Both the position numbers and the translations under genes were made by a program. The notes below the pieces were generated by a model. The model had not been told where the DNA came from, did no database searches, and was given only the letters and a program-made list of their open reading frames with translations. Shown piece after piece: positions 27,684 through 54,576 of a stretch of DNA of 64,000 bases. Position 1 is the first letter of the stretch. Every line of letters begins with the position of its first letter. Source of the stretch: Clostridiales bacterium (GTDB taxonomy: Bacteria; Bacillota; Clostridia; Oscillospirales; CAG-272); assembly GCA_012514145.1 (NCBI GenBank), contig JAAZAV010000033.1, positions 8,153 through 72,152 on the forward strand, in the 5' to 3' direction.

Positions 27684-28390
27684 TGCTCACCGCCCTTTTT
27701 CTGCATCATAAAGAGTTTTCCGATATCGCTCTCAAGATACTCGTCCCTTGTGCCGCAGAATACGGCGGCTCCTATATGCAGGATATGAGTAGTATAACGA
27801 ACGGCGGCGGCGATGTCATGTGTGATCATTATGATGGTGATGCCTTCCCGGTTCAGACCGGCAATCAAGCCGTACATTTCGGCGGTGACTTTCGGGTCAA
27901 GCCCCGACGCCGGTTCGTCAAGCAGCAGAGCTTTCCTTGTCGCGCACAGCGCCCTTGCGAGCAGAACTCTCTGCTGCTGACCGCCGGACAGCTCCCTGTA
28001 ACATCGATTCGCGAACTCCGATATTCCCATGCGCGCCATGTTTTCTTCGGAGAGCCGCTTTTCTTCCCTGTTATAAAACGGTCTCAGCCCGCAGCGTCCC
28101 TGGCATCCCGAGAGAACTATTTCTCGCACAGACGCGGGAAAGTCTTTCTGCACAGCCGTCTGCTGGGGCAGATAGCCGATTTCGTTTTTCTTCAGCCCGT
28201 CGCCAAACAGAATCTGACCTCTGACCGGCTCCCGAAGATTGAGCAGCGTTTTCATCAGTGTGGTTTTACCGGAACCGTTTTCTCCGACTATGCACAGATA
28301 ATCGCCCTTATTGACAGAGAAATTGAGGTTCTCCGCTATGATATGTGAATCATAACCGAGCGACAGATTCCGAACGGTGAGCAGCGCCAT
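27680..28390 (-). CDS. znuC: metal ABC transporter ATP-binding protein
   Basis: Walker A GENGSGKTT, signature LSGGQQQR and Walker B LLLDEP. Confidence 0.9.
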   Translation of the reverse strand: MALLTVRNLSLGYDSHIIAENLNFSVNKGDYLCIVGENGSGKTTLMKTLLNLREPVRGQILFGDGLKKNEIGYLPQQTAVQKDFPASVREIVLSGCQGRCGLRPFYNREEKRLSEENMARMGISEFANRCYRELSGGQQQRVLLARALCATRKALLLDEPASGLDPKVTAEMYGLIAGLNREGITIIMITHDIAAAVRYTTHILHIGAAVFCGTRDEYLESDIGKLFMMQKKGGEQ

Positions 28391-28401
28391 ATAACGGCCT
28401 C

Positions 28402-32678: not shown

Positions 32679-32754
32679 GGGGGTATAGCTCAGCTGGGAG
32701 AGCGCTTGAATGGCATTCAAGAGGCCAGCGGTTCGATCCCGCTTATCTCCACCA
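32679..32754 (+). tRNA. tRNA-Ala (anticodon GGC)
   Basis: 76-nt cloverleaf folded by hand. Acceptor GGGGGTA/TATCTCC carries the G3:U70 identity pair. Anticodon stem CTTGA/TCAAG with loop ATGGCAT, T-arm AGCGG-TTCGATC-CCGCT, and encoded CCA. Confidence 0.93.
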
Positions 32755-35755: not shown

Positions 35756-37246
35756 ATGAAATCTATACGAATAATCGCTGCGGCACTGACACTTATAATG
35801 CTGTTCACCGCCTTCATTTCCTGCGGCGGGGATGGCGGCACCGCGGCTGAAACAACAACCGCTGCGGCGCAGACGCAGACCGAGACAGCCGAAACCGAGC
35901 CGCTTGACGCACTGGAACAGCGCAAACTGGTGGAGGACGAACTGCCCGATAAAGACTTTAACGGCCGCAAGTACCGCGTGATACACAACAGCGGGAACCC
36001 CATACTCGACAGCTTCCTTGCCGAGGAGGAGGCAAGCGGTGATGTGGTGAAGGACGCGGTCTACGAACGCAACTCAAAGGTTAAGGAGCGTTTCAACGCC
36101 GATTTCACCTTTGACAACTCGAGGGTCTATCAGGATGCCGCCAGCTATGTGGCTACAAGCGTTCTGGCGGGGGACGATGCCTTTGACCTTGTGTCCTCGC
36201 ACATAGTGTCACTGTCGGCAAACGCGCTCAAGCATGTGCTGCTCAACTGGTACGACCTGAAATACGTCGATTTCGACAAGCCCTGGTGGTCCCGCTCCTG
36301 CAAAGAGGATCTGACCCTCTACAACACCGCCCTCATAGTGGTGGGAGATATGGCGATGTCGGCGCTGGGCTACACTTATTGCATGTACTTCGACAAGGGA
36401 TTTGCCGAGGACTATAAGATGGGCGACATCTACGAGACGGTGCTTGACGGAGAGTGGACGGTCGACCTGCTGAACGATCTTACAAAGGATATCTACAACG
36501 ATATAAACGGCAACTCGGTGAAGGATATGGAGGACTTCTGCGGTCTGGGCTTCAGAGTGGGCTCCCATACCAACACCTTCCTGTGGGCGTTCAACAACCC
36601 GGTGGTGAGTATCGGCAGCGACGGCGAGCCCAGCGTTTCGATCAGCGTGGAGCGTATAACCGCCCTGCTTGAGAAGATAAACACTCTCTGCAACGTCAAC
36701 CCCGGCGGAATACCCATAACCAAATACGATGATGCATACAACTACTTCAAGAACGGTCACTGCGTGTTCTCACTTGGCGAAATAGGCAACTCGGTCTCCT
36801 TCTTCCGCGACATGGAGAGGGATTACGGCATTATCCCTTATCCCAAGTGGGATGAGGCTCAGGAGCGCTACCGCACCTCGGTGAACGGCGCCCATGAGGG
36901 CATGGCGGTGCCGCTTACTATATCGGACGCCGATTTTGTGGGCATAATCACCGAAGTTCTATGCGCCGAGAGCTATAAGCTGGTGGTTCCCGCCTATTAT
37001 GACGTAGCTCTCAAATACAAGGGCGCCCGGGACGAGACCTCAATAGAACTGCTTGACATAATTGTTGACGGCCGTTTCTTCGACTTCGGCTTTATTTACG
37101 ACAACTGGAAGGGACCCTGCTTCATGCTGGAAGGGCTGGTAAAGAACAACTCCAGCGACTTCGCCTCGGCTTACGCGGCAAAGGAAGCCGCCATAACCGC
37201 ACACTATCAGAGCGTTTTCGACGCCATCGCCGAATACAGCGCGTAA
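35756..37246 (+). CDS. SBP-like lipoprotein, paralogue 4 of 10
   Basis: Lipobox AFISC|GG. Motifs GDVVKDAVYERNSKVKERFN, SVLAGDDAFDLV, FDKPWW, DINGNSVKDMED, DYGIIPYPKWDEAQ and YYDVALKYKGARDETSIELLDIIV. Confidence 0.7.
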   Translation: MKSIRIIAAALTLIMLFTAFISCGGDGGTAAETTTAAAQTQTETAETEPLDALEQRKLVEDELPDKDFNGRKYRVIHNSGNPILDSFLAEEEASGDVVKDAVYERNSKVKERFNADFTFDNSRVYQDAASYVATSVLAGDDAFDLVSSHIVSLSANALKHVLLNWYDLKYVDFDKPWWSRSCKEDLTLYNTALIVVGDMAMSALGYTYCMYFDKGFAEDYKMGDIYETVLDGEWTVDLLNDLTKDIYNDINGNSVKDMEDFCGLGFRVGSHTNTFLWAFNNPVVSIGSDGEPSVSISVERITALLEKINTLCNVNPGGIPITKYDDAYNYFKNGHCVFSLGEIGNSVSFFRDMERDYGIIPYPKWDEAQERYRTSVNGAHEGMAVPLTISDADFVGIITEVLCAESYKLVVPAYYDVALKYKGARDETSIELLDIIVDGRFFDFGFIYDNWKGPCFMLEGLVKNNSSDFASAYAAKEAAITAHYQSVFDAIAEYSA

Positions 37247-37264: not shown

Positions 37265-37293
37265 GGAGACCCTGCTTGGGTCTCCCTTTTTTT
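37265..37293 (+). terminator. intrinsic terminator after paralogue 4
   Basis: GGAGACCC (37265-37272) pairs with GGGTCTCC (37278-37285), followed by T7. Confidence 0.8.
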
Positions 37294-37302
37294 ATTTGGC
37301 TG

Positions 37303-37331
37303 TTGACATAAAACGCCGTCTGTTGTACAAT
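37303..37331 (+). promoter_or_regulatory. sigma-A-like promoter for paralogue 5 and downstream genes
   Basis: TTGACA (37303-37308), 17 nt, TACAAT (37326-37331). Confidence 0.6.
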
Positions 37332-37368
37332 ATTATCACCAAAACACAGAGGAAAGAAGGGGGACAAT

Positions 37369-38922
37369 ATGTCAAACACCGCCAAAAGAATGACAGCGCT
37401 TGCCCTGGCAATCCTTACGCTCATTACGCTGCTTGCTTTAAGCGCGTGCGGCGGCGGCACCGGAGGGGAGAGCGATGCTCCGGCTCCCGGCGAAAACACG
37501 GTCGGCGAGGAAACAACCGCTCCCGCCGAGACGAAACCTCACTACCAGACGCTCAGCGGCGACTACAGCGGGCGCACCTTCCGGGTGCTTGGAATGTATA
37601 ACGATTCCTATCCCCAGTTCACCAACTTCGAGATTTGGTCGGAGGGCGAGACGGGCGATATCGTAAACGACGCGGTCTTCCGCCGCAATCTCGACATCGA
37701 GCAGCAGTACGGCGTAACCATCGAACAGAAGCTCGCCGAGGCGGATCAGGCACATAGTAACACCAAGCTGTACAAGCACATCGAATCGACGGTGCTGGCG
37801 GGTGAGGATTCCTTCGACATCTTCTTCATCATGCTGCGCGACGCCGACCAGATTATAGCCAACGCATATTCGCTGGATATGGCGGAATTCGAATACATCG
37901 ACTTCAGCCAGCCCTACTGGAATCAGAAGACCATCGAGGACATATCCATCGGCGGCAAGGTGTATCTCACCAACAGCGACTTCTCGCTTATCGACAAAAA
38001 GCGCACCTACACACTTATGTACAACCGGGAGCTGTGCTCCGAATATTCCGATTACAAGATAGAAGATATGATCTACGACGGCAACTGGACGCTTGACATA
38101 ATTGCGGAGCTGTGCGACGCGGTTTCCTTTGACATCAACGGCGACGGCGTTCCGGGCATTGAGGATCAATGGGGACTGGGATTCGACTCTGATAAAGGTC
38201 TCTGTTCGTTGCTCATCGGCATGGGCGGTTCGCTTGCGGCAAAGGACGAGACGGGAATGCCGGTGATAAATGTGGGCAGCGAGCGGATGATAAACATCGC
38301 CCAGAAGATTTACGACAGTTTCAACGGCAAGTATAATTACTTCTTCTGCGGTCAGTACCCCTGGAAAGTAACACATATGCGCTCCGCCGACGCGGGTGCC
38401 GTGTTCAAAGCCGGACGTCTGCTTTTCATCACCTCATTCCCCCAGTCGCTTGTCAGCTTTTCGGCGGAAAGCGATCTGGACTACGGCATCATAACCTACC
38501 CCAAGTATGACGAGAGCCAGGACGGCTACTATACATATGCCGACCTGTGGGGATGCGCCCTCTTCGGCGCGCCGGTCACCAATCCCGACACCTCCTTCAC
38601 CGGCTTTATGCTTGAAATCCTGTCCGGCATGTCCACCGATACCACCCTTAAGGCATATTACGAGACGTCCTGCAAGATAAAGCATGTCTACGACGAGACC
38701 AGCGCCGATATGCTTGACATCACCTTCAGCGGCATAGTTTTCGACCTTGGCACCATCTTCGACTGGGGCGGCATGTATTCGACGGTCATATCGCAGATCC
38801 TGTCGATGGGCGGCAGTCCCGCCAAGACCTTCGACTATGTCTCAAAATGGGAATCCATAAAAGAAAAAGCCGAGAGCGAGATGGATAAAACCATTGAAAT
38901 CATCCTCGCCAGAGAGTTTTAA
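37369..38922 (+). CDS. SBP-like lipoprotein, paralogue 5 of 10
   Basis: Lipobox LALSAC|GG. Motifs GDIVNDAVFRRNLDIEQQYGV, TVLAGEDSFDIF, FSQPYW, DINGDGVPGIED, DYGIITYPKYDESQ and YYETSCKIKHVYDETSADMLDITF. Confidence 0.7.
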   Translation: MSNTAKRMTALALAILTLITLLALSACGGGTGGESDAPAPGENTVGEETTAPAETKPHYQTLSGDYSGRTFRVLGMYNDSYPQFTNFEIWSEGETGDIVNDAVFRRNLDIEQQYGVTIEQKLAEADQAHSNTKLYKHIESTVLAGEDSFDIFFIMLRDADQIIANAYSLDMAEFEYIDFSQPYWNQKTIEDISIGGKVYLTNSDFSLIDKKRTYTLMYNRELCSEYSDYKIEDMIYDGNWTLDIIAELCDAVSFDINGDGVPGIEDQWGLGFDSDKGLCSLLIGMGGSLAAKDETGMPVINVGSERMINIAQKIYDSFNGKYNYFFCGQYPWKVTHMRSADAGAVFKAGRLLFITSFPQSLVSFSAESDLDYGIITYPKYDESQDGYYTYADLWGCALFGAPVTNPDTSFTGFMLEILSGMSTDTTLKAYYETSCKIKHVYDETSADMLDITFSGIVFDLGTIFDWGGMYSTVISQILSMGGSPAKTFDYVSKWESIKEKAESEMDKTIEIILAREF

Positions 38923-38937
38923 CGCGGAGAAAACACA

Positions 38938-40302
38938 ATGACCGAACATTATATCACCCCCAACCGCCCCGGGTGCGTAGGGCGGAGCGACAGCGAATCG
39001 ATACAAAACGCGATAGCCGCCGCGAAGTCAAACGGGCTTGACACGGTGGTGATCCCCCGGCGCAACGAGCGCACCGGAGAGATGCTCTGGAACATCTCCG
39101 AGACGATACTTCTGCCCTCGGGGATCACAATAATCATCGACAACGCCCATCTGCGTCTTGCCGACGGCGTTTTCTGCAACATGTTCCGAAACGAAAATAT
39201 GTATAATGAAGCGGGGCTCTCCGCGGAGGGCGAACAGCACGATATCCGCATCCTCGGCCGGGGGAACGCTCTGCTTGACGGCGGCAATCACAACGGCCTG
39301 ACCGAACGCACCTCAATGAAAGAGGGCTATCCCCACATCTACCACAACAGCTTCATTCTGCTGCACAATGTCCGCGACTTTGAGATTTCGGGCATGACAA
39401 TGACCGAACCGCGCTGGTGGTGCGTCAACCTGATATACTGCAGCTACGGCAGGGTGGGGGATATTAAGGTTTTCGCCCGTGACAACGTGCCGAACCAGGA
39501 CGGGATAGACCTGCGCTGCGGCTGTCACAATATCGTTGTCGAGGACATCACGGGACAGGGCGGAGATGACCTCATAGCGCTCACCGGCTTTCAGGGCACC
39601 GAGACAAAGCACGCGGTGGCGGGGCGCTGCATCGACATTCATTCGGTGGTCATCCGCTCGATACGCGGCACCTCGGTGACAAAGGCGATTGTGGCGCTGC
39701 GCAACCACGACGGCGTCCGCCTCCACGATATACTTATCGACGGCATAGTGGACAGCGCGGCGGGGGAGCCGGACAACCGCCCATACGCCGCCCTGCGCAT
39801 CGGTCAGAACCACTATGTGCATACCCGCCCTTCGGCTCTTGGGGAGACGTTCAATATCAACGCTCAGAATATCCACTCTTCGCGCAACACCGCGGTGCTG
39901 CTCTGTTCCACGCTGTTAAACAGCTCGCTGCGGAACATTTACTCTTCGGGGAGCGCCGTATGTGCCGTCTCCACCAACACCGGCGCGCAGATTAAAAACC
40001 TGCTTATCGACGGCGTATTCTATACAGCCGACAGGATGGAGAACACCGCCTGCGCAGCCGACCGCTGCGGCTCACACGAGGCGGTTTTCAACTTCGAGCA
40101 TCACGAGGACACCCCGGCGCTGTGCGGCAGCAACCGCTCGGAGAACGTTGTCATCTCAAACGTCTTCGCTTCGAATCTCGGCTCCCGTCCTCTGCTCTAT
40201 GCCTCGGGTAGAGCCGATGTGACTATAATCGACAACGCCGAATCGGCTCGTCTGCCGGTGCTCACCGACGGCGGGGAGGATGTGAGGGTAACACGGATAT
40301 AG
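38938..40302 (+). CDS. leaderless right-handed beta-helix protein, GH28-related glycosidase-like (copy A)
   Basis: N-terminal DSESIQNAIAAAKSNGLDTVVIPR resembles the pectate-lyase-3 type. NQDGIDLRCG and GQGGDDLIALTG resemble the GH28 NTDG / G-DD motifs. No signal peptide. Confidence 0.55.
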   Translation: MTEHYITPNRPGCVGRSDSESIQNAIAAAKSNGLDTVVIPRRNERTGEMLWNISETILLPSGITIIIDNAHLRLADGVFCNMFRNENMYNEAGLSAEGEQHDIRILGRGNALLDGGNHNGLTERTSMKEGYPHIYHNSFILLHNVRDFEISGMTMTEPRWWCVNLIYCSYGRVGDIKVFARDNVPNQDGIDLRCGCHNIVVEDITGQGGDDLIALTGFQGTETKHAVAGRCIDIHSVVIRSIRGTSVTKAIVALRNHDGVRLHDILIDGIVDSAAGEPDNRPYAALRIGQNHYVHTRPSALGETFNINAQNIHSSRNTAVLLCSTLLNSSLRNIYSSGSAVCAVSTNTGAQIKNLLIDGVFYTADRMENTACAADRCGSHEAVFNFEHHEDTPALCGSNRSENVVISNVFASNLGSRPLLYASGRADVTIIDNAESARLPVLTDGGEDVRVTRI

Positions 40303-40314
40303 GAGGATAAACCG

Positions 40315-41676
40315 ATGATAAAGCAATTCTACACCCCCAACAACACCGAGTGCATAGGCCGTACCGACAGCGTATCGATACAGAGAGCCGTGGACAAGGC
40401 GAGCGAGAGCGGACTTGACACGGTGGTGATTCCGCGTTACAATCTGCGCACCGGAAAAAACATCTGGATAATCGACGAGACCATACTTCTGCCCTCCTGC
40501 ATGACGATAATCCTTGAGGGATGCCATATGCGCATGGCGGACGGAGCGGTCTGCAATATGTTCGCCAACTCCAACGCCCGAACCGAGATCGGCAACACCC
40601 CAGGGGGCGAGCAGCACGACATAGCGATAATCGGGCGGGGGCAGGCTGTGCTTGACGGCGGTGAGCCGAACGGCCTGTCGGAATTCACCTCCATGAAGGA
40701 CGGGCGCCCCCACATCTCACAAAATCTCACCATATATCTGCACAACGTGACCCGCTTCATAATAGAAGGATTTACGGTTGTAGACCAGCGCTGGTGGGCG
40801 ATGGCATTCATGTACGCCCGTTCGGGCAGAGTGGGGAACCTCAATTTCCGGCTCACCCGGCATGCCATAGACTCGAAAACCCAGTGGCGAAACCAGGACG
40901 GCATAGACCTGCGGGTAGGCTGCTCGGATATCGAGATATACTCGATAAGCGGCGAGGTGGGGGACGACATGATAGCCCTTACCGCCCTGAACGGCATACA
41001 TTTTGAAGAAAAAGAGAGGGTGGAGGGAGCGGACACCGACATTCACGACGTTATTATCCGCGACGTCCGGGGCGTCACCAACATGTGCGCCATAATCCGC
41101 CTGCTGTGCCAGTACGGAAATAAGATTTACAATATCACCATGCGCGACATATACGATGTGGCGCGTCCGGGGAAGGAATCGCGGGCGCAGATGCTGCTGC
41201 GCATCGGCGACGAGGGTTACTACCGGGGCGACGAGAGCCTTCGCGCGAAGCCGGGCGATATATGCAACATTTCGGCGGAGAATCTCTATACAAGCGCCAT
41301 GGCGGCAATAGTGACGGCGGTGGGCGTGCGGAACTTCACGGCAAAGAACATTCACGTCAGGGGCGTCGGCGGCTATGTCTGGGCATGCGGCCACTATACG
41401 GTGAACAAGAGCCCGCGGATATTCCATCCCGACGACTATGAGCAGCATAAAACCGAACGCTGCATTGCATATAAGTCGCTCACCACCACCGCAGAGAACG
41501 TGGTTATCGAGGACGTATTCTACGAGGCGGGGGATTTCGGCGCCGAGGCGCTCTTCTCCTTCAGCCGCGCCGCATTGTCCGATGTAACCATAAGCCGCGT
41601 ACACAACGCCTCATCCCTGCCCCTTCTCTCCTTCGCCGATATGGAGGACGCCGCAGGGGATATAAAACTCCTGTGA
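40315..41676 (+). CDS. leaderless right-handed beta-helix protein, GH28-related glycosidase-like (copy B, paralogue of 38938..40302)
   Basis: Collinear with copy A (DSVSIQRAVDKASESGLDTVVIPR, NQDGIDLRVGC, GEVGDDMIALTA). No signal peptide. Confidence 0.55.
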   Translation: MIKQFYTPNNTECIGRTDSVSIQRAVDKASESGLDTVVIPRYNLRTGKNIWIIDETILLPSCMTIILEGCHMRMADGAVCNMFANSNARTEIGNTPGGEQHDIAIIGRGQAVLDGGEPNGLSEFTSMKDGRPHISQNLTIYLHNVTRFIIEGFTVVDQRWWAMAFMYARSGRVGNLNFRLTRHAIDSKTQWRNQDGIDLRVGCSDIEIYSISGEVGDDMIALTALNGIHFEEKERVEGADTDIHDVIIRDVRGVTNMCAIIRLLCQYGNKIYNITMRDIYDVARPGKESRAQMLLRIGDEGYYRGDESLRAKPGDICNISAENLYTSAMAAIVTAVGVRNFTAKNIHVRGVGGYVWACGHYTVNKSPRIFHPDDYEQHKTERCIAYKSLTTTAENVVIEDVFYEAGDFGAEALFSFSRAALSDVTISRVHNASSLPLLSFADMEDAAGDIKLL

Positions 41677-41739
41677 GAGGATAACAGACACTGCCGTTTA
41701 AGACACCAATAAAATTCATAATCTAGGAGGACTGACACC

Positions 41740-43245
41740 ATGAAGAAACTCACGGCGCTAACACTTGTCATCGCACTGCTTCTGGGCGTATTCGCTTCGC
41801 TCACCGCCTGCGGCGGAGGAGACGGGGGAGACACGGCCGTCACCACCACTGCGGCCGATGCGGGCGCGGTAACCGAGGAGACCGAACTGCTCCGCGAGAA
41901 CACTCCCGACACACTGCCGGCAGGGCTCAATTACAACGGCATGGACGTCCGGATACACGTTCGCGGCGACACCGGTTCCATTGAAGAATTCGAGATCGAG
42001 CAGACCGGCGACGTTATCGACGACGCCATATACCGCCGCAATTCGTCGGTTGAGGAACGGCTGAATGTCGAGCTTTCGGTGGTCATAGGCCATGGCTGGG
42101 AAAAGTACAACGATGAGATCAACAAGATACGCAACAGCATCCTGTCGGCCGACAACGCCTTCGACATAGTATCCGGATGGTCGGCGCGGATCCCCGTCCT
42201 TGCGGTGGAGGGCTGCTTCATGAATATGTATGACCTGCCCCACATCGATTTTGATCAGCCCTGGTGGGTGCAGTCGCTTATCGAGGAGCTGACCATCGCA
42301 GACAATCTCTACTTCCTAACCGGCGATATCACGCTTACAATACTCCGCGCCGCGTATGCAATTGTGTTCAACAAATCCATGGCGGAGAAGTATCAGGTGG
42401 GCGATCTTTATCAGACGGTGCTTGACGACAAGTGGACTATTGACGATATGTCCGAAGTTGTTAAAGGCATTTCAAGCGACCTGAACGGCGACGGCGTTAT
42501 GGACGAGAAAGATCAGTATGGTTCCGTTTGGACGGCAATGAATGACGTCGATTCCTTCCTGCAGAGCTCCGGCATCAAGATGATAACCAAGGACAGCGAC
42601 GGCTACCCGGTATGGGATTTCGAATATGATAAGATTGCCGTGCTTGTAGAGAAGGTATACGGGCTGATGTTTGAAAATGACGGTGTTCTCGGCTACAATA
42701 CCGCAGGCGGCACCGCAGGAGAAAATCAGTCCATCATGTTCATCGAAGACAGGGTACTCTTGCGTCCGGCGGTGCTGTCCTACTGCGAGGGCAGCCTCAA
42801 GGAAATGGAGAGCGACTACGGCATCATCCCCTACCCGAAGTATGACGAGAAGCAGGAGGAATACCTTACCCGAATCCAGGACGCCGCGGCGCTCATGTGC
42901 GTGCCGATTTCCCAGCCAACCGATAAGCTGGATGCGGTCGGCGCGGTGCTTGAGGCGATGGCAGCCGAGAGCTACCGGAACGTGACCGCCAGTTTCTTTG
43001 AAGTGGCTATGAAGGTCAAGTATTCGAGGGACGAGGTATCCTCACAGATGCTGGACATCATACGCGGCGGCGCATATCTCAACTTTGCCAGCATCTACAA
43101 CGAGAGCATAGGCTATCCCTGGTTTGTAATGCGCAATCTCATGTGCGCCAAGAGCAAGGATTTCGCCTCATGGTTCGCAAAGAATGAGCCCACGATAATT
43201 CAGAAGCTTGAAGTTGCCGTGAACAGCTTCAAATCCAACGAGTAA
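41740..43245 (+). CDS. SBP-like lipoprotein, paralogue 6 of 10
   Basis: Lipobox SLTAC|GG. Motifs GDVIDDAIYRRNSSVEERLNV, SILSADNAFDIV, FDQPWW, DLNGDGVMDEKD, DYGIIPYPKYDEKQ and FFEVAMKVKYSRDEVSSQMLDIIR. Confidence 0.7.
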   Translation: MKKLTALTLVIALLLGVFASLTACGGGDGGDTAVTTTAADAGAVTEETELLRENTPDTLPAGLNYNGMDVRIHVRGDTGSIEEFEIEQTGDVIDDAIYRRNSSVEERLNVELSVVIGHGWEKYNDEINKIRNSILSADNAFDIVSGWSARIPVLAVEGCFMNMYDLPHIDFDQPWWVQSLIEELTIADNLYFLTGDITLTILRAAYAIVFNKSMAEKYQVGDLYQTVLDDKWTIDDMSEVVKGISSDLNGDGVMDEKDQYGSVWTAMNDVDSFLQSSGIKMITKDSDGYPVWDFEYDKIAVLVEKVYGLMFENDGVLGYNTAGGTAGENQSIMFIEDRVLLRPAVLSYCEGSLKEMESDYGIIPYPKYDEKQEEYLTRIQDAAALMCVPISQPTDKLDAVGAVLEAMAAESYRNVTASFFEVAMKVKYSRDEVSSQMLDIIRGGAYLNFASIYNESIGYPWFVMRNLMCAKSKDFASWFAKNEPTIIQKLEVAVNSFKSNE

Positions 43246-43285
43246 AACGCGATAAATACAATACAGAAAGGCAAGAAAAGCAAGT

Positions 43286-44257
43286 ATGACCGAAAATACG
43301 GAAGTAAAAACCCCCGCGACAGAAGAAGTTTACGCCCTTTTCCGCGAGACGATGCCCTTTGCGGTGATAAGCGACGGAGCCGCCCGATATGTTATTGGAA
43401 AACCGGAGAACACGCTGCTCTTCCGCCGGAACGAGAAGGGCGAACTCATCGCCGCCCTGGTCCTCGAAACCGACACGGTGCTGTTTTTGGGAGTGCGCGA
43501 GAATTTCCGCCGCCGGGGCATCGCAGGCGAACTACTGTCGGAAGCCGAGGAACTGGTGAAGGCGGCGGGTCACAAATATATCAGAATCGGCGCGGGAAGG
43601 GATTACCTCACTCCCGGTGTGCCGATGGCCGAACCGGTAGGCGATGTAAAATTTTTCCTGCCGCCCGATATAGTGCCGGGCATAGACAGGAGTGCCGCCG
43701 GATTCTTCATCCGTCGGGGTTACCGCCACGGCTGGGGCGAGGACAACTGCTTCGACATGCAAATGTCGCTCACCGAACCGGGGCTGTCATTCCCCGCGGA
43801 GGGCGAGACAATAGACGGCATCACCTACCGTATCGCCGTAAAGGGCGACATCGAGGGCGCCTGCCGCTGCACCGACGACGCTCATCCCGATTTCACCAAA
43901 TACTACCGGAGCGAGTCGCTGTATGAATACAATCACCATCCCGGAAAGCACGTGAAGGGCGGCGAGGTCAGCTTTGCCCTTGTCGCCGAAGCCGACGGGG
44001 AGATCGCAGGCACGCTGATAATCAGCCTCAACGCGGGAGGCGAGGGCATCGGCAGCGTGGGCTGCACCGCGGTTGCCCGCAAATACAGAAAACGCCACAT
44101 AGGGGTCAACATGGTGCGGGTGGGCACCGGAATTCTTGCGGAGGCTGGGATGACTCTCGGGTTTCTCGGCTACACCTACACAGGGCTTGACCGCATGTAC
44201 GGCTATTCGGGCTACCGGGTGCGCAACTTCTGGCTCATGGCGCACAAGGATTTTTGA
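43286..44257 (+). CDS. tandem GNAT-fold acetyltransferase
   Basis: Two GNAT-like halves are present (FRRRGIAGELLSEAEELV and ARKYRKRHIGVNMVRVG). Confidence 0.65.
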   Translation: MTENTEVKTPATEEVYALFRETMPFAVISDGAARYVIGKPENTLLFRRNEKGELIAALVLETDTVLFLGVRENFRRRGIAGELLSEAEELVKAAGHKYIRIGAGRDYLTPGVPMAEPVGDVKFFLPPDIVPGIDRSAAGFFIRRGYRHGWGEDNCFDMQMSLTEPGLSFPAEGETIDGITYRIAVKGDIEGACRCTDDAHPDFTKYYRSESLYEYNHHPGKHVKGGEVSFALVAEADGEIAGTLIISLNAGGEGIGSVGCTAVARKYRKRHIGVNMVRVGTGILAEAGMTLGFLGYTYTGLDRMYGYSGYRVRNFWLMAHKDF

Positions 44258-44331
44258 CCCGAAAACACGTCTTGCGGCATCGCCTGATTTCGGCTTTTCC
44301 GCACGCCGCATATAACGAAAGGATAAAGGAT

Positions 44332-45750
44332 ATGCATGTACATCCCGCTAAGGCCGCCCCCTTTGAGGGCGCGCCGCGAATCACCGCTCCGTCGGTATTC
44401 GGAGCATCTCCGAACAAGCCCTTCCTCTGGCGCGTTCCGGTGCTGGGAGAGCGGCCGGTAAGCATTGAAGCCGAAGGTCTGCCCGAGGGGCTGCGCCTTG
44501 AGGGGAATGCGGTTCGGGGCTTCACCAGCCGCCGGGGCGAATTTCCCGTGACATTGCGCGCCGTCAACGCAAAGGGAAGCGGCGAAAAGACTGTCACCCT
44601 GCGGCTGGAGCCCGACGGAATGCTGCGGACTCCCCTGCTGGGATTTACCACCTGGAACGCCTTTCAGACCGGCGTGACCCAGGAGGATGTTATACGCACC
44701 GGCGAGCTTCTTGTTGAGAAGGGCATTGCCGAATACGGCTACAGCTATGTCAATCTCGACTCCTCCTGGCAGGGGGAGTACGGCGGGCGGTACAACGCCA
44801 TAATGCCCTGCGAGCGCTTCCCCGACATGGGAGCGATGTATGCCCGGCTGCACGAACTGGGGCTTAAGGGGGGCATATACTCCTCACCCTTTCTTGCGCC
44901 CTGGGGCTGTCCGCCCGACCGAGAGTCGCTGCCCGGCTGCACGGTGGGCGAGCCGGATATCCGCTTCCCCGACAGAAACACCGGCATCGGTGTCGACCGC
45001 CGTGAGGCAGAGAATGTGGCGCAGTGGACCGAATGGGGCGTTGACTATCTCAAATATGACTGGATGCCCACCGATGCGGTTAACGCCGACCTGATGAAGC
45101 GGGAGCTGTTGAAAGCCGGCCGGGAGATAGCCTTCTGCGTCACGGTGCACGCCGATCCCGCCTGCTGGCGGTACTGGGTGAAGAACTGCTGTTCCTGGCG
45201 CTCAAACGACGACACCTACGACACCTGGGATAACCTGTACAAGCGCTTCTCGTATCTGAACCGCTTCGAGGGACGCACCGCGCCGGGTCACTTCTATGAC
45301 CTGGACATGCTTGCCATCGGCGCCATGATAATGAACAATCTGAGCTGCCGCTACACCCCCGAGGAGGAGCTGACCGCCTATACCCTCCACGCCTTCTTCC
45401 CGTCGCCGGTACAGCTGAGCATGCAGCTCGACCGGCTCACCGATTACGAGTTCGACCTCATCTGCAATGAGGAGCTTATCGCCATAAATCAGGACGCTCT
45501 CGGCGACTACCCGAAGCTTGTGTTCGACGAAGGGGATGTGAAAATCTACTCCCGATCCCTCGAGGACGGCGGAAAAGCCTATGCCGTGTTCAACCTCTCG
45601 GAAAAGGAAGCCGAGGGCAGTCTTGAACTCGGCGGCGAATATGCCCTTCGCCGGGTCTGGGAGAAAGAGGATATCGGAGTTTCCGACAGGCTGAGCTATA
45701 TCCTCTCACCACATGAGTCGGCGGTGTTCAGGCTAAGTCCGGTAAAATAA
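44332..45750 (+). CDS. leaderless GH27-like alpha-galactosidase-family enzyme with N-terminal Ig-like domain
   Basis: TPLLGFTTWNAF, YSYVNLDSSWQ and VDYLKYDWM are melibiase-fold motifs. ATG at 44332 follows AAAGGA. The TTG start at 44254 was rejected. Confidence 0.7.
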   Translation: MHVHPAKAAPFEGAPRITAPSVFGASPNKPFLWRVPVLGERPVSIEAEGLPEGLRLEGNAVRGFTSRRGEFPVTLRAVNAKGSGEKTVTLRLEPDGMLRTPLLGFTTWNAFQTGVTQEDVIRTGELLVEKGIAEYGYSYVNLDSSWQGEYGGRYNAIMPCERFPDMGAMYARLHELGLKGGIYSSPFLAPWGCPPDRESLPGCTVGEPDIRFPDRNTGIGVDRREAENVAQWTEWGVDYLKYDWMPTDAVNADLMKRELLKAGREIAFCVTVHADPACWRYWVKNCCSWRSNDDTYDTWDNLYKRFSYLNRFEGRTAPGHFYDLDMLAIGAMIMNNLSCRYTPEEELTAYTLHAFFPSPVQLSMQLDRLTDYEFDLICNEELIAINQDALGDYPKLVFDEGDVKIYSRSLEDGGKAYAVFNLSEKEAEGSLELGGEYALRRVWEKEDIGVSDRLSYILSPHESAVFRLSPVK

Positions 45751-45780
45751 GCGAAAAACACATATACACATAACAAAACA

Positions 45781-45836
45781 CCCCGCGGGCGAACAAGCCG
45801 GTTTTTGACTTGTAAGCCCGCGGGGCGCGTTTTTGT
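45781..45836. terminator. bidirectional terminator between the GH27-like gene and paralogue 7
   Basis: CCCCGCGGGC (45781-45790) pairs with GCCCGCGGGG (45816-45825), followed by CGCGTTTTTG. Confidence 0.6.
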
Positions 45837-45850: not shown

Positions 45851-47359
45851 TTATCCCACATTCTCGGCGAAGGTGGTGTTTATGCGCTTCACATCCTCAA
45901 GAGCCTTGGTCTCATGCTTGGCGTAGCGGGAGGCGAAGTCGGTGTCGAATTCGTAGACAAGATAGAGTATCTCGTCGTTATACAGACCTAACTGATAGTA
46001 CCAGCCCAGGTCGTAGACACGGGTGGAGAGGATGATGTCAAGCATGGCGACGCTCTCCTCGTCCCGGAAGTACTTGCCGATGAGGGTCTTGTCGTAGTAT
46101 GCGGGGGTGACCTTGTCAAGCGACTCGGCGGCGAGGGCTTCCAGCACTATCCCCGTCATGTCGGCAGATTCTATCACTGCCGGCACGCAGAGGAAGGTGG
46201 AGTGCCAGGAGCCAATGGTGTGGCCGTAGGAAGTCTGCTTCTCGTCGTACTTCGGGTAGGGCAGGATGCCGAAGTCGGTCTGCATGTCGCGGAAGTAGGA
46301 GGTCAGGTCGAGCATCTGCATGAAGAAGAGCGCCTGATCGTTCGAGAACATGTTCACCGGGTCGGTGATATCGTAGCTGACCCGCTGATAGGTGTAGGAG
46401 AGCGATTTGTCATAAACATAGGCGGTGTATTTGTCGATGATGTTTATCAGCCGCTCGCTGTAAAGGGTCAGCTCTATCTCGCCGTCGGCATTGACGGTGC
46501 CGCACTTGATGAGCGAGCCGTTCACCGCCGCCATGATGCTGTCATCCCAGACGATGGAGCCGAAGCGGTCGTTTTTGTCAAATGTGCCGTTGCCGTCAAG
46601 GTCGGCGGAAACCGGCTTGCCCATGGCGGTCATGGCGTCGAAAGTCCAGGCTCCCGAGTCAACCAGCTCATAGGGATTGTCAAGTTTGAAATCGCCCACC
46701 AGCTTTTTGTTGAATATTATGCAGCAGGTGGCGTCGTTGTCGGCGGTGGATATGTCGCCGGTGGTGAAGAACATCCTGCCCTTAATGGTCATGTCGGCGT
46801 TCGCCTTCTGATCCCACCATTCGTTCTCAAGATCTAGATAGGGCAGCGAGTTGAAGTCGTAGAGATAACCGGCGCATGCCAGGTTGCAGACGTCGTAGCC
46901 CGCCACCATGCCGGCATCGTATGCCGAATCGGCGGCAAGCACCGATTTCGTGATAAGCTGAAAGCCCGAGCCGGCGCCCTTCGCCGAGCCGTATTGCTCG
47001 ATGGTTTTGATATTCACGCCGAAGCGCTCCTCAACCGCCTGATTGCGCAGAAAACGGGCGTCGTTGAGAATTTCGCCGTTCTGCTCCTCGGCGAGAAAGT
47101 CGTTCTTGCGCCAGTTGTTCTCGGTGTTGCCGGTTATTAGAAAGGTGAAGTCGGAGCCGTCGAACTTTACGTCGGTCGGCAGATGGGAAGCGGGCAGGGT
47201 GATGCCGGTCTCGGCAGTCTCTGCCGTGCCGCCGGAGGGTGAAGCGGTCGTATCGGCCGAGTTTCCGCCGCCCGAGCAGGCGGTGAGCAGCACCGAACCG
47301 GCTGTAAGAACGGCAAGGATCGCCGCGGCAATGTGTGATTGAAATAAAGGTCTTTTCAT
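45851..47359 (-). CDS. SBP-like lipoprotein, paralogue 7 of 10
   Basis: MKRPLFQSHIAAAILAVLTAGSVLLTAC|SG gives the lipobox. Motifs GEILNDARFLRNQAVEERFGV, SVLAADSAYDA, LENEWW, DLDGNGTFDKND, DFGILPYPKYDEKQ and YYDKTLIGKYFRDEESVAMLDIIL. Confidence 0.7.
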   Translation of the reverse strand: MKRPLFQSHIAAAILAVLTAGSVLLTACSGGGNSADTTASPSGGTAETAETGITLPASHLPTDVKFDGSDFTFLITGNTENNWRKNDFLAEEQNGEILNDARFLRNQAVEERFGVNIKTIEQYGSAKGAGSGFQLITKSVLAADSAYDAGMVAGYDVCNLACAGYLYDFNSLPYLDLENEWWDQKANADMTIKGRMFFTTGDISTADNDATCCIIFNKKLVGDFKLDNPYELVDSGAWTFDAMTAMGKPVSADLDGNGTFDKNDRFGSIVWDDSIMAAVNGSLIKCGTVNADGEIELTLYSERLINIIDKYTAYVYDKSLSYTYQRVSYDITDPVNMFSNDQALFFMQMLDLTSYFRDMQTDFGILPYPKYDEKQTSYGHTIGSWHSTFLCVPAVIESADMTGIVLEALAAESLDKVTPAYYDKTLIGKYFRDEESVAMLDIILSTRVYDLGWYYQLGLYNDEILYLVYEFDTDFASRYAKHETKALEDVKRINTTFAENVG

Positions 47360-47389
47360 ATTATCTTCAATAATTATGCGCAAAAGCCG

Positions 47390-49391: not shown

Positions 49392-50867
49392 TCAGTTCAG
49401 TTCGGCAAAGATCTCCATTGTGTCGGCTATCTTCTGCTCTACGGCGCTGCGCGCCGATTCGACGGTGGACGCCACAGAGCTGTTGCCGGCGAGCAGCAGG
49501 TTCTGAATGCCAGTGTTGAGCGAGGCGCACCAGTTGTAGGGCACGCTCATGTCCACGTCACGGGTGGCGCGGATGATGGCAAGCATGTCGATCGAACGCT
49601 CGTCGCGCAGACCCTTTGTGGAGACGTGGGTGTCGAAGTAGACGGGCAGGGTGGTGTAGACGCTCTCGCCCGACAGGGCGTCGGTGATGACGCCTATCTT
49701 TGAGGGGTCGGGATTTGTGGTGGGTATGCAGAACACCAGCACCCGGTCGACCATGTTGCTGTGGTGCCCCTCCTGCTGCTCGTCGAATTTGGGGTAGGGA
49801 ACCAGACCGAAGTCCACCTCGTTGGCGCGCATCTGAAGCCCCGCCTTGATCTCGCCGGCGAGGAAAAGGGCGCGTTCGTTCATAAAGAGGTAGAGATAGC
49901 TGTTTTTCTCCACGGCGCCGGTTGTGGCGTTGGCATAGGCTCCGTCATTTCCGCCCAGCATGGGGGCTATCTTGTCGCAGACCTTGAAGAAACGCTCCAT
50001 TTCGGGCATGAAGGTCAACTCGCCCTTGTCGTTTTTGTCAACATACTTGATTCCGCAGCCGAAGAGCATCTTGGTCACCGAGTTGTAGAAGGCGGACAGA
50101 CCGTATATCTGATTGCTGTTCACCGTAAGGGTGAAGTCGTCGTCGCCGTTCAGGTTGGCTGCCGGTTTCATATAGGAGTAAAGGGCGTCAAGCGTCCACC
50201 TGCCCTTCTCCACCAGATCGTAAGGCTCGTCCAACCCAAGGTCAGCCATCATCGCCTTGTTGAAGAAAAGGCACCAGGTGCCGTCGAACGCCATGAGATT
50301 CAGATCTCCCGTGGCGTAGAACAGCTTGTCATAAACGGTCATGCCGTCGATAACCGGCTGATCCCACCATTCCTCGTCAAGCCGCAGCTCGGGAATGCCG
50401 TGCAGATTGTAGAACAGACCGCCGGTCACCAGCGGCGCGGAGTCCCGGTCGGGCACGTAGCAGGCGTCGAAGTCGTCAGAGCCGGCAAGCACCGAGGTCT
50501 GAATCCGGGTGTCAAGGTCGTCGAATTTTTCCTCGGTCACCTTTATGTTGAAGTTCAGCTTCTGCTCGACGGCGCGGTTGCGGGTATACACCGTGTCGTC
50601 CAGCGCGTCGCCGGTCATCTCCTCAAAGTCGAGGTATATATACATCTCCCATACCGCCGCCGAGTTGAGGTATCGGGCGGTATAGCCGTTAAGGTCGACA
50701 TCGGGATAATCATATGAGGGGAGAGTTGTCTCATCCGCCGCGGTTTCGGTGACGGCCGGATCCGCCGCGGCAGTCGTATCGGCAGAGCCGCCCCCGTTGC
50801 CGCCGCAGGAAAGAATCGTTGAGCCGAGCACGCAGGCGAGGAGGAACATATAAATCAGTTTTTTCAA
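49392..50867 (-). CDS. SBP-like lipoprotein, paralogue 8 of 10 (degenerate Ca-loop)
   Basis: Lipobox TILSC|GG. Motifs GDALDDTVYTRNRAVEQKLNF, SVLAGSDDFDA, LDEEWW, NLNGDDDFT, DFGLVPYPKFDEQQ and YFDTHVSTKGLRDERSIDMLAIIR. Confidence 0.7.
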   Translation of the reverse strand: MKKLIYMFLLACVLGSTILSCGGNGGGSADTTAAADPAVTETAADETTLPSYDYPDVDLNGYTARYLNSAAVWEMYIYLDFEEMTGDALDDTVYTRNRAVEQKLNFNIKVTEEKFDDLDTRIQTSVLAGSDDFDACYVPDRDSAPLVTGGLFYNLHGIPELRLDEEWWDQPVIDGMTVYDKLFYATGDLNLMAFDGTWCLFFNKAMMADLGLDEPYDLVEKGRWTLDALYSYMKPAANLNGDDDFTLTVNSNQIYGLSAFYNSVTKMLFGCGIKYVDKNDKGELTFMPEMERFFKVCDKIAPMLGGNDGAYANATTGAVEKNSYLYLFMNERALFLAGEIKAGLQMRANEVDFGLVPYPKFDEQQEGHHSNMVDRVLVFCIPTTNPDPSKIGVITDALSGESVYTTLPVYFDTHVSTKGLRDERSIDMLAIIRATRDVDMSVPYNWCASLNTGIQNLLLAGNSSVASTVESARSAVEQKIADTMEIFAELN

Positions 50868-50869: not shown

Positions 50870-51187
50870 CTACTCCGCCCCCGTTTCGTTTTGGGCGGCC
50901 TCGCGGTCGAGGGCGCGGTTGCGGAAATAAAGTATTATGTCGGTGCCTACCATGATGAAGTTGAGTATGTAGAATACAACCACATAGGTCAGGGGCTTGA
51001 CATCGGTGAAATGCCCTATCAGCTTGGCGGCGATACCGAAGAGGTAGCCTGTCTCGATGAAGCAGAGAAAGAGCAGTGATTTGCCCTTCGCGGTGCGGGC
51101 TTTCCAGGATTTCATAATAGACAGAGGCCAGGATATGCCGAAGCAGATAACCATTACCGATTCAAAAATATCAATAATCGCTTCCAT
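50870..51187 (-). CDS. 3-TM PQ-loop/SemiSWEET-like small membrane protein
   Basis: 105 aa with three predicted helices. ISWPLSIMKSWKARTAKGKSL resembles the PQ-loop motif (P-Q/L-x2-K-x2-K-x-[ST]-x2-G-x-S). Its stop lies 2 nt before the paralogue 8 start. Confidence 0.45.
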   Translation of the reverse strand: MEAIIDIFESVMVICFGISWPLSIMKSWKARTAKGKSLLFLCFIETGYLFGIAAKLIGHFTDVKPLTYVVVFYILNFIMVGTDIILYFRNRALDREAAQNETGAE

Positions 51188-52743: not shown

Positions 52744-52957
52744 CATAATACTTTCAATAAGTTTTGATTTTCGGGAAAAAGAGCCCGATTATATATAATA
52801 TTATCGAAAGATAAGGACAGGCTGCATATTTAGCCGTAACCGAGGTTTATTTCTCCCGCCTGCGCTTCCGGTTTCGGTATCCATATCATGTGTCATATGT
52901 CATACGTCATACATACGCCCCCTGTTTACCCGGTGCGTAAAATCGGCGTTTTCACCA

Positions 52958-52986
52958 TTGAATACATTCTCGTCATGGTGTATACT
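52958..52986 (+). promoter_or_regulatory. sigma-A-like promoter for paralogues 9 and 10 and the GH genes
   Basis: TTGAAT (52958-52963), 17 nt, TATACT (52981-52986), preceded by TG. Confidence 0.5.
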
Positions 52987-53040
52987 GTGTATAGGTTTTA
53001 TCGGCGATTCAAAACCATACGGATATATATGAGGTATAGT

Positions 53041-54543
53041 ATGAAACGTTCAATATCACTGATTTTAACCCTTGCCATGCTCGTTCTGCCGGTCCTTGCC
53101 GCCTGTTCCGGGGAGGGCGGAACTTCCTCCGCTGATACCGCCGCCGCGGACGCCTCACACGATACGGTTGAGACTGCCGGATCAATAGCCCTTGCCGACA
53201 TGACCGACGGACTTGAGGACAGGGACATGAACGGCTGGGAGCTGTCAATTCTCAACTGGGACGGCGGAACGCTCACCTGGGCAAACGTGGTTATCACCCC
53301 CGAAGCTCTTGACGGCGACACCCTGAACGACGCCATCTATCAGCGCAACGCCGACCTCTGCGAGCGCTTCAACATCACAATCCGCGCCGACGACTCAAAG
53401 AGTGTTCAGTCGGAGATGGCACGAAACGTGACCGCCGGCGACGATGTTTACACAATATACCTCTCAAACGAGGCATACGGCGGCAATCAAGGCATCGCAG
53501 GTCATATCCCTTATGCTCTGGACTGGCAGGAGATTCCCTGTCTGTCGCTTGATTCGCCCTGGTGGAATCCCGATGCCACCTCGGTCTACAAGCTCTCGGG
53601 GCATCAGGTTGCCCTCGCCGGAAACTGTTCGCTTACGGTGGTCTCCCGCGCCGTATGCATGGTGTTCAACAAGGTAATCTGGGAGGACGCCGGTACCGGC
53701 GAGAACCTCTATTCGCTTGTCGACTCCAACAAATGGACGGTTGACAAGTATCTGGAGGTCACAAAAGAGATCGGCCGCGACCTCAACGGCGACGGCGTCA
53801 TGGACAAGAACGACCTCTGGGCGCTTAATATGGGACGCGGTTTCAAGGGCTACACCGCCTCCTTCCTTGCCGGTTCGGGCATGAACTATACCGAGCCCGC
53901 CGGTGACGGCTCCTATGTCTTTGCCCTCGATTCAAATGAGAAGGCTCTGACCCTCCTTGCCAAGCTGGTGGACGCCCTTGCCGTTGAGGGTTACTGCTAC
54001 AACGAGGACGCGTCTGTTCACTCCTTCGCCCCCTCCGACCACTTCAAGAACAGCCACGCCCTCTTTACCCAGGGCGTGCCGAACGATATCTACAAGCTCC
54101 GGGATATGGAGGACGATATCGGCCTGCTTCCCATGCCCAAGCACGACGAGTCTCAGGAAAACTTCTACTCGGCAGCCTGGGGCGGCGCCGTCTGGACGCT
54201 GGCGCGCACATTCGACATGGACTTCGCCGAAAACCTGGGCATGACCCTGGAGGCGATGTCCTTCGCCGGCTGGCGGGATGTGATACCCGTCTACAAGGAG
54301 ATAGCCCTCAAGACCAAGACCGCCCGCGACAACGAGTCCGAGGCTATGCTCGACATCATCTTCGGCTCCATATACTTCGACTTCGGTACGAACATCTGTT
54401 ACGACGCGGTGCTTGCGCCTACCTTCCTCACCGATATCTGGCACAGCAGGGACTCGGGCGCCATTGTATCGACTATCGAAAAGTATAAACCGAAAATCAA
54501 CCAGTATATCACCGACCTGGTTATTGTCGCTTCCGAGATGTGA
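53041..54543 (+). CDS. SBP-like lipoprotein, paralogue 9 of 10
   Basis: MKRSISLILTLAMLVLPVLAAC|SG gives the lipobox. Motifs GDTLNDAIYQRNADLCERFNI, NVTAGDDVYTIY, LDSPWW, DLNGDGVMDKND, DIGLLPMPKHDESQ and VYKEIALKTKTARDNESEAMLDIIF. Confidence 0.7.
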   Translation: MKRSISLILTLAMLVLPVLAACSGEGGTSSADTAAADASHDTVETAGSIALADMTDGLEDRDMNGWELSILNWDGGTLTWANVVITPEALDGDTLNDAIYQRNADLCERFNITIRADDSKSVQSEMARNVTAGDDVYTIYLSNEAYGGNQGIAGHIPYALDWQEIPCLSLDSPWWNPDATSVYKLSGHQVALAGNCSLTVVSRAVCMVFNKVIWEDAGTGENLYSLVDSNKWTVDKYLEVTKEIGRDLNGDGVMDKNDLWALNMGRGFKGYTASFLAGSGMNYTEPAGDGSYVFALDSNEKALTLLAKLVDALAVEGYCYNEDASVHSFAPSDHFKNSHALFTQGVPNDIYKLRDMEDDIGLLPMPKHDESQENFYSAAWGGAVWTLARTFDMDFAENLGMTLEAMSFAGWRDVIPVYKEIALKTKTARDNESEAMLDIIFGSIYFDFGTNICYDAVLAPTFLTDIWHSRDSGAIVSTIEKYKPKINQYITDLVIVASEM

Positions 54544-54576
54544 GGTTTTATGTATTGTAATAAATGAAGGGTATTA

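Follow-up and report, generated by a model that had tools for sequence, protein, structure and literature searches.

A predicted six-gene sugar-scavenging operon of an uncultured digester Clostridium combines two lipoprotein binders with four leaderless enzymes and lacks a permease

Here we describe a predicted six-gene sugar-scavenging operon of an uncultured digester Clostridium, which occupies positions 37303 to 45836 of a 64,000-nucleotide stretch of Clostridiales bacterium DNA (GenBank assembly GCA_012514145.1, contig JAAZAV010000033.1, forward-strand positions 8,153 to 72,152; hereafter the window). The operon encodes two lipoproteins of the solute-binding protein (SBP) type, SBP5 and SBP6, two beta-helix proteins, betaA and betaB, a tandem GNAT protein and a glycosidase of glycoside hydrolase (GH) family 27. 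No sugar permease accompanies them, and we find this absence to be a property of the whole binder family rather than of this operon. We put a probability of roughly 55% on the reading that such units are modular cassettes of binders and enzymes feeding a shared ATP-binding cassette (ABC) translocator encoded elsewhere.

The unit had been picked out in an initial annotation, made by a model from the nucleotide sequence and its open reading frames (ORFs), as a promoter-to-terminator unit with two binders and four leaderless enzymes but no translocator. Our analysis upholds that description in full and gives the missing permease a different scope.

Results

A single co-transcribed unit

The annotated promoter at 37303, the hairpin at 45781 and the six tightly packed, co-directional genes between them, with gaps of 15 and 12 nt around betaA, were all borne out (Table 1). 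The promoter, TTGACA-17-TACAAT, lies directly 3' of the terminator of the preceding SBP-like gene, a GC-rich stem of 8 bp with arms GGAGACCC/GGGTCTCC and a following T-run. This terminator forms the 5' boundary of the unit, and RNA depth upstream is low. At the opposite end, the terminator hairpin is common to the unit and to a convergent unit on the minus strand. The intergenic gaps measure, in order, 15, 12, 63 and 40 nt, the first 4 nt of the GH27 ORF coincide with the end of the GNAT gene, and a GGAGG-like ribosome-binding site (RBS) stands ahead of every gene. Folding revealed no terminator-like hairpin in any intergenic gap, and thus no sign of the internal terminators by which the unit might have been split. 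An Rfam search found no riboswitch or leader in the unit; the sole Rfam match in the window is a tRNA gene at 32679-32751 (+).

Table 1. Coordinates of the operon, its control elements, neighbouring units and paralogous binder genes in the window.
Feature	Position	Strand	Description
Intrinsic terminator of preceding SBP-like gene (35756-37246)	37265-37295	+	Stem 37265-37285 and T-run, -20.5 kcal/mol
Promoter, Sigma-70/SigA-type	37303-37331	+	11/12 consensus matches; first metatranscriptome contig starts at 37354, ~20 nt past the -10 element
SBP5	37369-38922	+	517 aa
Beta-helix A (betaA)	38938-40302	+	454 aa
Beta-helix B (betaB)	40315-41676	+	453 aa
SBP6	41740-43245	+	501 aa
Tandem GNAT	43286-44257	+	323 aa
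GH27 ORF	44254-45750	+	498 aa; opens at TTG 44254
GH27 with N-terminal immunoglobulin-like (Ig-like) domain	44332-45750	+	Melibiase_2/Melibiase_C; likely start at ATG 44332
Terminator hairpin CCCCGCGGGC...GCCCGCGGGG	45781-45826 (element to 45836)	.	10-bp GC stem, -36.3 kcal/mol, T-runs on both sides
Convergent unit	51187-45851	-	105-aa protein with three transmembrane (TM) segments, SBP, Amidase_3, GFO/IDH/MocA, SBP
Third unit	~53040 to 58179		SBP, SBP, GH29-like, GH5; terminator at 58271
Paralogous binders, minus strand (of ten)	11363-12916, 23779-25257, 45851-47383, 49392-50867	-	Paralogues
Paralogous binders, plus strand (of ten)	18036-19526, 35756-37246, 37369-38922, 41740-43245, 52888-54543, 54577-56028	+	Paralogues

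The sequence of the unit is present in bioreactor, digester, sludge and landfill metagenomes and in several metatranscriptomes. Contigs assembled from four bioreactor metatranscriptomes span 37354-45784 at a word depth of ~3-7, which is even across the unit and compares with 0-2.5 in both flanks. One of them stops at 45784, and depth drops past ~45925. The contigs bridge the SBP5/betaA, betaA/betaB, SBP6/GNAT and GNAT/GH27 junctions, and those of three runs bridge the 63-nt betaB/SBP6 gap (41676/41740). With every junction bridged and depth falling away outside, the proposal of a single co-transcribed promoter-to-terminator unit finds support. Furthermore, the higher depth of the unit relative to the flanking binder genes fits independently regulated cassettes.

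A second TTGACA-17-TACAAT (11/12), with hexamers identical to those of the operon promoter, occurs at 40415-40443 (+), ~100 nt into the betaB coding sequence, and could be an internal promoter or a chance match. Together with a site at 42671 that scores 10/12, it allows the unit to be viewed as two juxtaposed modules, SBP5-betaA-betaB and SBP6-GNAT-GH27, each under its own internal promoter or promoters and joined by read-through only. The mosaic content of the unit, in which SBP5 has orthologues beside GH28-like genes while the GNAT family and the betaA homologues are found elsewhere, would accord with two modules, as would an assembly variant that diverges at 43564/43565. We nevertheless consider this arrangement rather unlikely, since RNA contigs bridge the betaB/SBP6 gap at even depth, hairpins and terminators are absent from the intergenic gaps, and the internal sites lie within coding sequence, where chance matches arise (14 promoter-like matches were found against 6.8 expected).

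At least five independent assemblies contain the six genes in the same linear order, and in several of these, as in the RNA contigs, the region is unbroken and its sequence identical. It is, therefore, barely credible that permease genes were simply lost from a fragmented metagenome assembly or in binning. Such an artefact might be suspected from the metagenome-assembled source and from the different continuation of one low-coverage assembly (L063), but ~84 kb of contiguous sequence is without permeases and the same pattern recurs in many unrelated metagenome-assembled genomes (MAGs).

The L063 assembly is the same as the window up to 43564 (L063 3293/3294) and then runs into unrelated sequence with an AP_endonuc_2 gene, leaving the GNAT at 95 aa; this could reflect a strain variant or a branch of the assembly graph. 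An RNA contig of run X3 has a loose end there too, at 43565, and continues differently from L063. Elsewhere, one X6 RNA contig joins 36291 to 42476, skipping 6184 nt, with just 20 nt on one side. Both sides of that junction fall within paralogous binder genes (35756-37246 and SBP6), and the contig is probably a chimeric assembly between them.

Two sugar-type lipoprotein binders

Both binders open with a hydrophobic signal and a lipobox, LSAC with Cys27 in SBP5 and LTAC with Cys23 in SBP6, followed by a low-complexity linker rich in T, A, E and G, in keeping with the lipoprotein signals annotated for them. Neither has a direct Pfam or NCBIfam match; their homologues give weak matches to PF13416 and PF01547. 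An AlphaFold2 model of SBP5 (predicted local distance difference test score, pLDDT, 90.9; predicted TM-score, pTM, 0.86) has 2zyo, 6jal, 6rjy and 4mfi as its top Foldseek matches in the PDB, with E ~1e-12 and target-normalised TM-scores of 0.59-0.71. The structural matches are sugar binders of ABC importers, namely those for cyclo/maltodextrin, alpha-glycosides and arabino-oligosaccharides (AbnE), together with UgpB and MalE. A profile of the binder family likewise matches AbnE (6rjy) by sequence at 1e-10, its best PDB sequence match. On the model, SBP5 is thus predicted to be a sugar-binding protein of the carbohydrate uptake transporter 1 (CUT1) type, with a class-II periplasmic-binding fold. 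The structural match and the family profile lend substance to the earlier view that both proteins are genuine lipoprotein SBPs.

SBP6 is 27% identical to SBP5 and belongs to another subfamily, where it is closest to the gene immediately upstream of the unit (35756-37246). Trp184 and Trp240 are conserved in the binders, as would be typical of sugar stacking. Paralogues with differing enzyme neighbours and an identity of only ~25% also share the motifs ENGDxVNDAxYRRN, PKYDExQExY and YDExSAEMLD. This conservation is compatible with a common docking partner, although the motifs may be purely structural. Residues 255-266 of SBP5 (window ~38131-38166) form a near-invariant, family-wide loop, D-(L/I)-N-G-D-G-x-x-D-x-x-D, which resembles a calcium-binding loop.

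Four enzymes without signal peptides

The listed ORFs are maximal, as each extends from the earliest start codon following a stop, and the N-termini of all four enzymes are polar. In the GH27 protein, the alignment to the PDB constructs 4nzj and 4ogz, which have no signal, begins with residues 33-36 opposite residues 5-8. Hence, there is no room for a signal peptide, nor for the alternative upstream starts that might have supplied one, and the description of the four enzymes as leaderless stands. Because other proteins of the window bear clear Sec or lipoprotein signals, the absence of signals here is meaningful, and all four enzymes are predicted to be cytoplasmic.

Conversely, it could be proposed that the enzymes leave the cell by non-classical export and function extracellularly, the SBP-like lipoproteins serving as surface scaffolds, in which case the polymer would need no importer. 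The absence of a local importer is the sole argument for such an arrangement, which we regard as highly improbable: the enzymes have no signal peptide, the GH27 begins where its signal-less homologues begin, other secreted proteins of the genome carry normal signals, and a coenzyme A-dependent GNAT cannot work outside the cell. An apparent fusion of an SBP with a GH39 domain (P0014, 892 aa) offers no help either; its lipobox lies in the middle of the protein, which marks it as two neighbouring genes joined artefactually by read-through or in gene calling.

betaA and betaB, which are 39% identical, both pass the gathering cutoff of PF00295 (GH28; 33.9 and 30.0 bits, respectively, against 22.9), with a match that spans just profile positions 85-179 of 324. 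The AlphaFold2 model of betaA (pLDDT 94.8) is a right-handed beta-helix, for which the top Foldseek matches are the GH28 exo-polygalacturonases 2uve and 3jur at ~12-14% identity; phage tailspikes are matched about as well. A family profile matches 5olp, 3jur and 7b8b. Among 61 betaA homologues N186, D188, G209, D210 and D211 are invariant, and betaB keeps the NQDGID and GDD motifs; we take the NxD and (G/Q)DD aspartates to be the catalytic residues of GH28. Relative to the GH28 exo-polygalacturonases and galacturonidases of Yersinia (YeGH28, 2uve) and Thermotoga (3jur), the two proteins share the right-handed beta-helix and the NxD and GDD aspartates but differ in the partial profile match, in their low identity and in that the substrate-binding motifs GHG and RIK were not recognised in them; R255, D258 and G259 are conserved in betaA homologues instead. 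Both are best regarded as putative, divergent hydrolases of the GH28 type.

The last gene matches the catalytic-barrel family Melibiase_2 (PF16499, 66.5 bits) and, for the C-terminal beta-sandwich, Melibiase_C (PF17801, 29.5 bits), both over their cutoffs, and in the PDB 4nzj (1.5e-46) and 4ogz (2.1e-45), as well as the alpha-galactosidase 1uas, the beta-L-arabinopyranosidase 4nx0 and the alpha-N-acetylgalactosaminidase 1ktb. Its motifs YLKYDW, with D259, and SNDDTYDTW, with D319 and D320, align with those of 4nzj; D259 of (Y)LKYD is presumably the nucleophile, with D319 and D320 as candidates for the acid/base. We predict a glycosidase of the alpha-galactose, alpha-N-acetylgalactosamine or beta-L-arabinopyranose type. 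ATG 44332, preceded by an AAAGGA RBS, is likely its true start rather than TTG 44254. Elsewhere the gene is called at 472 aa in one assembly (L060), consistent with the ATG, and at 498 aa in two others.

The GNAT protein carries two Acetyltransf_1 stretches in Pfam. A single-sequence PDB search gave a weak match (E = 0.003), and a profile of 42 GNAT-family sequences scored highest in the PDB against 4zm6 (1e-10) and the 5kf1 group (6e-10), over short aligned segments. The 5KF1 structure is linked to GlmA. The tandem-GNAT structure 4ZM6 is the glucosamine N-acetyltransferase region of RmNag (PMC4680927). The RmNag C-terminal region and the Clostridium enzyme of the 5KF1 group resemble the GNAT of the unit in having two fused GNAT domains over ~300 aa and a G-x-DYL-x-PGVP segment; the difference is that ours is matched over parts only. 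The protein may thus be distantly akin to glucosamine or glucosaminide N-acetyltransferases, an assignment that we hold with moderate confidence, and the earlier suggestion that a GNAT beside glycosidases hints at an amino-sugar substrate gains moderate support from the RmNag match. Homologues of the GNAT elsewhere occur mostly in housekeeping or cell-wall contexts, beside SLT or fused to NUDIX, and not in glycan loci.

A binder family without neighbouring permeases

Among the ORFs of at least 50 aa in the unit, none has two or more predicted TM segments bar an antisense ORF inside SBP5, which we take to be spurious; the unit encodes no translocator or other membrane protein, as had been annotated. 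No sugar permease occurs in the 64-kb window, nor in ~10 kb past each of its ends (~84 kb contiguous). The polytopic proteins of the whole window are just an H+-pyrophosphatase, at 19812-21902 (-), and the permease of the sole ABC importer (26835-29472, -), which looks to be of the Zn/Mn type, judged by gene sizes and a lipoprotein N-terminus.

Counting SBP5 and SBP6, the window encodes ten paralogous lipoprotein binders. They are ~500 aa long and 25-33% identical, and none has a permease beside it. Most adjoin leaderless enzymes (PIG-L, GDSL, PHP, Amidase_3, GFO/IDH/MocA, GH29-like and GH5). Three adjacent units, of which the operon is one, each pair two binders with leaderless enzymes.

This pattern extends well beyond the window. 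A scan of one genome per species with an alignment of SBP5 orthologues yielded 32 loci, every one of them on a MAG of uncultured Clostridia, from digesters or from termite, horse, chicken or human guts. A hidden Markov model of the family gave 75 matches in the window and loci L001-L035 (550 kb), or 72 distinct genes once a duplicate locus was dropped. Neither an EAA-loop permease nor a 6-TM, PF00528-like protein was found in the 550 kb around these 72 genes or in the 832 kb of all loci examined, and PF00528 never appears among the precomputed Pfam lists of ~20 loci. A signal and a Cys are present by inspection in essentially all 65 full-length members, 55 of which satisfy a strict lipobox pattern. 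At E <= 1e-30, an exhaustive profile search collected 7,314 clusters (50% identity), almost all of them 480-515 aa long. The family has no dedicated Pfam or NCBIfam model, and our literature search returned precedents for orphan binders and nothing on this family.

The annotated absence of a permease from the operon is therefore real, but it is not peculiar to the operon: the missing permease is a property of the whole binder family, with 72 distinct genes likewise without one. To the question of whether permeases had been lost or were never there, the loci give a partial answer, in that locally they look never to have been present rather than lost.

The comparison of loci also bears on the pairing of binders. 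The initial annotation had offered two explanations for the two different binders of the operon, either two ligands or two steps such as capture and hand-off. All three neighbouring units carry two binders. We rejected a fixed A/B pairing, as a heterodimer or hand-off couple would show, since clustering reveals no fixed pairing of subfamilies and the members of clusters 8 and 13, neighbours in loci L009 and L011, are split by unrelated genes. For this reason, two ligands seem the likelier explanation, ahead of two binders obliged to act together in capture and hand-off.

SBP5 orthologues (44-45% identity) adjoin GH28-like genes, which lie directly upstream in L001/L002 and L004 and are separated by one intervening gene in L003. 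The search for orthologous operons through the enzymes was less rewarding. The nearest betaA homologues (52-57%) sit in another conserved context, for which reason we set betaA aside as a guide, and a metagenome scan with the GH27 gave just relatives of 30-35% identity without binder-family neighbours and one 53% fragment on a 1.3-kb contig. The content of the unit thus appears to be a mosaic. In the other context of the betaA homologues, a Pfam-less cytoplasmic protein of 571-573 aa lies upstream of the homologue. It is overlapped by a zinc-ribbon-like protein of 64-69 aa (CPEC...CVKCC), and the three genes form a conserved cluster (L038 8076-9982, L039 2744-4629, L040 8101-9986).

A few small membrane proteins do occur beside binder genes. 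The first gene of the convergent unit (50870-51187, -) encodes the 105-aa, 3-TM protein of Table 1 and ends 2 nt before the SBP gene 49392-50867. Its size, topology and P-x6-K-x-R-T-x-K-G-x-S stretch are reminiscent of a SemiSWEET or PQ-loop protein. As a SemiSWEET candidate it was dropped, as it has no Pfam, NCBIfam or PDB match and no homologue in the other loci. In L032, a membrane protein of the YgjV family (11411-11944; PF10688, 4.7e-31) starts 4 nt past a family binder gene. EamA proteins, of the drug/metabolite transporter (DMT) type, are encoded 90 nt upstream of a family binder in L019 (9020-9910) and upstream of the betaA-homologue cluster in L039 (1837-2739). We also considered a recurring, undescribed membrane protein near binder genes and discarded it, the several ~240-aa multi-TM ORFs being mutually unrelated and without Pfam matches.

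These neighbours invite the view that the binders work without any ABC translocator, serving in surface glycan capture or sensing, or together with a non-ABC partner (SWEET-superfamily-like or DMT) in an unrelated or undescribed uptake route. In its favour are the lack of an ABC permease near any of the 72 family genes, the 105-aa protein and the YgjV (L032) and EamA (L019, L039) neighbours, and the existence of lipoproteins with an SBP fold and non-transport roles (bioRxiv 10.1101/2025.06.19.660376). We think it an unlikely alternative. Just 3 of the 75 family genes have such membrane neighbours, which show no homology to one another, and the 105-aa protein has no match in Pfam, NCBIfam or the PDB. 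The studied unit has no membrane gene at all and no adjacent histidine kinase or chemoreceptor. Moreover, the fold and the nearest relatives of the binders are those of bona fide ABC binders. More doubtful still is the specific suggestion that the family of ~7,300 clusters delivers sugars through a partner other than a classical ABC system, for example a small 3-TM (SemiSWEET-like) or YgjV-type protein, a thought raised by the small membrane proteins that are occasionally translationally coupled to binder-family genes.

Discussion

A proposed model of cassettes feeding a shared translocator

Our preferred reading, that of cassettes which plug into a common ABC translocator, can be set out as a series of steps. 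An uncultured, monoderm member of the Clostridia that lives in anaerobic digesters would use the operon as a cassette for scavenging oligosaccharides, induced by its substrate. The lipid-anchored, CUT1-type SBP5 and SBP6 would capture oligosaccharides at the cell surface, probably two different ligands, possibly pectic oligosaccharides or oligosaccharides of amino sugars and uronic acids. These ligands would be passed to an ABC translocator, made up of two permeases and an MsmX/MsiK-like ATPase, whose genes would lie elsewhere and which dozens of paralogous binders would also use. In the cytoplasm, the two GH28-type beta-helix hydrolases and the GH27 may then trim the imported glycan, and the GlmA-like tandem GNAT may re-acetylate amino-sugar residues at their free amino groups. 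Specificity and regulation would thereby reside in many small cassettes of binders and enzymes, whereas the engine would be common to all. It is in keeping with such a mode of life that the unit encodes no extracellular depolymerase, which suggests an organism living on oligosaccharides released by others.

Several points weigh against this reading. We infer the shared translocator, the ligands and the direction of GNAT action; the translocator itself is hypothetical, none having been found in the loci covered. CUT1 permeases contribute to substrate selectivity, and a single permease pair that serves many binders of 25-33% identity with different ligands would be unusual for CUT1. Three of the 75 family genes abut small non-ABC membrane proteins (105-aa 3-TM, YgjV-family and EamA), a hint that the binders may have different partners. 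The unit neither contains nor adjoins a regulator gene; in some relatives, LacI or AraC genes adjoin members of the binder family. The GH28 match of the beta-helix proteins is partial, with the GHG and RIK motifs not recognised in the sequence after the GDD motif. Finally, the RNA data are unstranded assembled contigs, which may contain DNA.

Comparison with known systems

In the usual Gram-positive locus, one binder is accompanied by two permeases for each substrate. The CUT1 importers (TC 3.A.1.1), such as AbnEFJ of Geobacillus stearothermophilus, resemble the operon in having a lipoprotein binder of class-II fold clustered with intracellular glycosidases. They differ in that the unit, like the sampled members of the family, has no adjacent permease genes, that its binders are ~100 residues longer with family-specific motifs, and that there are two of them per operon. 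Likewise, the Gram-positive polysaccharide utilization loci (gpPULs) of gut Firmicutes place a binder together with glycoside hydrolases, so that oligosaccharides can be imported and broken down inside the cell. By definition, a gpPUL has a regulator and a complete transporter, whereas the unit lacks permeases, ATPase, regulator and extracellular depolymerase.

There are precedents for the sharing of transport components. MsmX/MsiK ATPases are shared among CUT1 systems, and the Bug binder family is served by very few translocators. The Bug (TctC-like) binders of Bordetella constitute a large family of mostly unassigned function (PMC11452294). As in the present family, their genes are paralogous, numerous and without adjacent membrane components; they differ in belonging to tripartite tricarboxylate transporters (TTT) rather than ABC systems, in their TctC fold family and in lying outside enzyme operons, where those described here are sugar-type lipoproteins packaged with cytoplasmic enzymes. 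With a local ratio of binders to permeases of 10:0 in the 64 kb, and of 72:0 in the sampled loci, the likeness to Bug and TTT is one of analogy, not homology. In Escherichia coli, MppA works with OppBCDF (PMC3173086), and it too is a binder whose gene has no adjacent membrane components, although in its case just one additional binder serves a peptide system. Thus, orphan binders with a translocator elsewhere are of a known kind; it is their scale and their systematic packaging with cytoplasmic enzymes that are unusual here.

Implications

If the shared-translocator model is true, these abundant, uncultured Clostridia of digesters and guts would depart from the textbook Gram-positive locus in the way they arrange glycan uptake, plugging many cheap, separately regulated cassettes into one engine. 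Counting permeases in MAGs would then grossly underestimate the range of substrates, with consequences for those pipelines that demand a transporter in order to call a polysaccharide utilization locus. A large, unannotated binder family would at the same time become a target for ligand discovery. Should these genomes instead hold no ABC translocator, the family would be a sign of uptake by some unknown route; and if its members do act with a non-ABC partner, they would represent a new class of binder-dependent sugar uptake.

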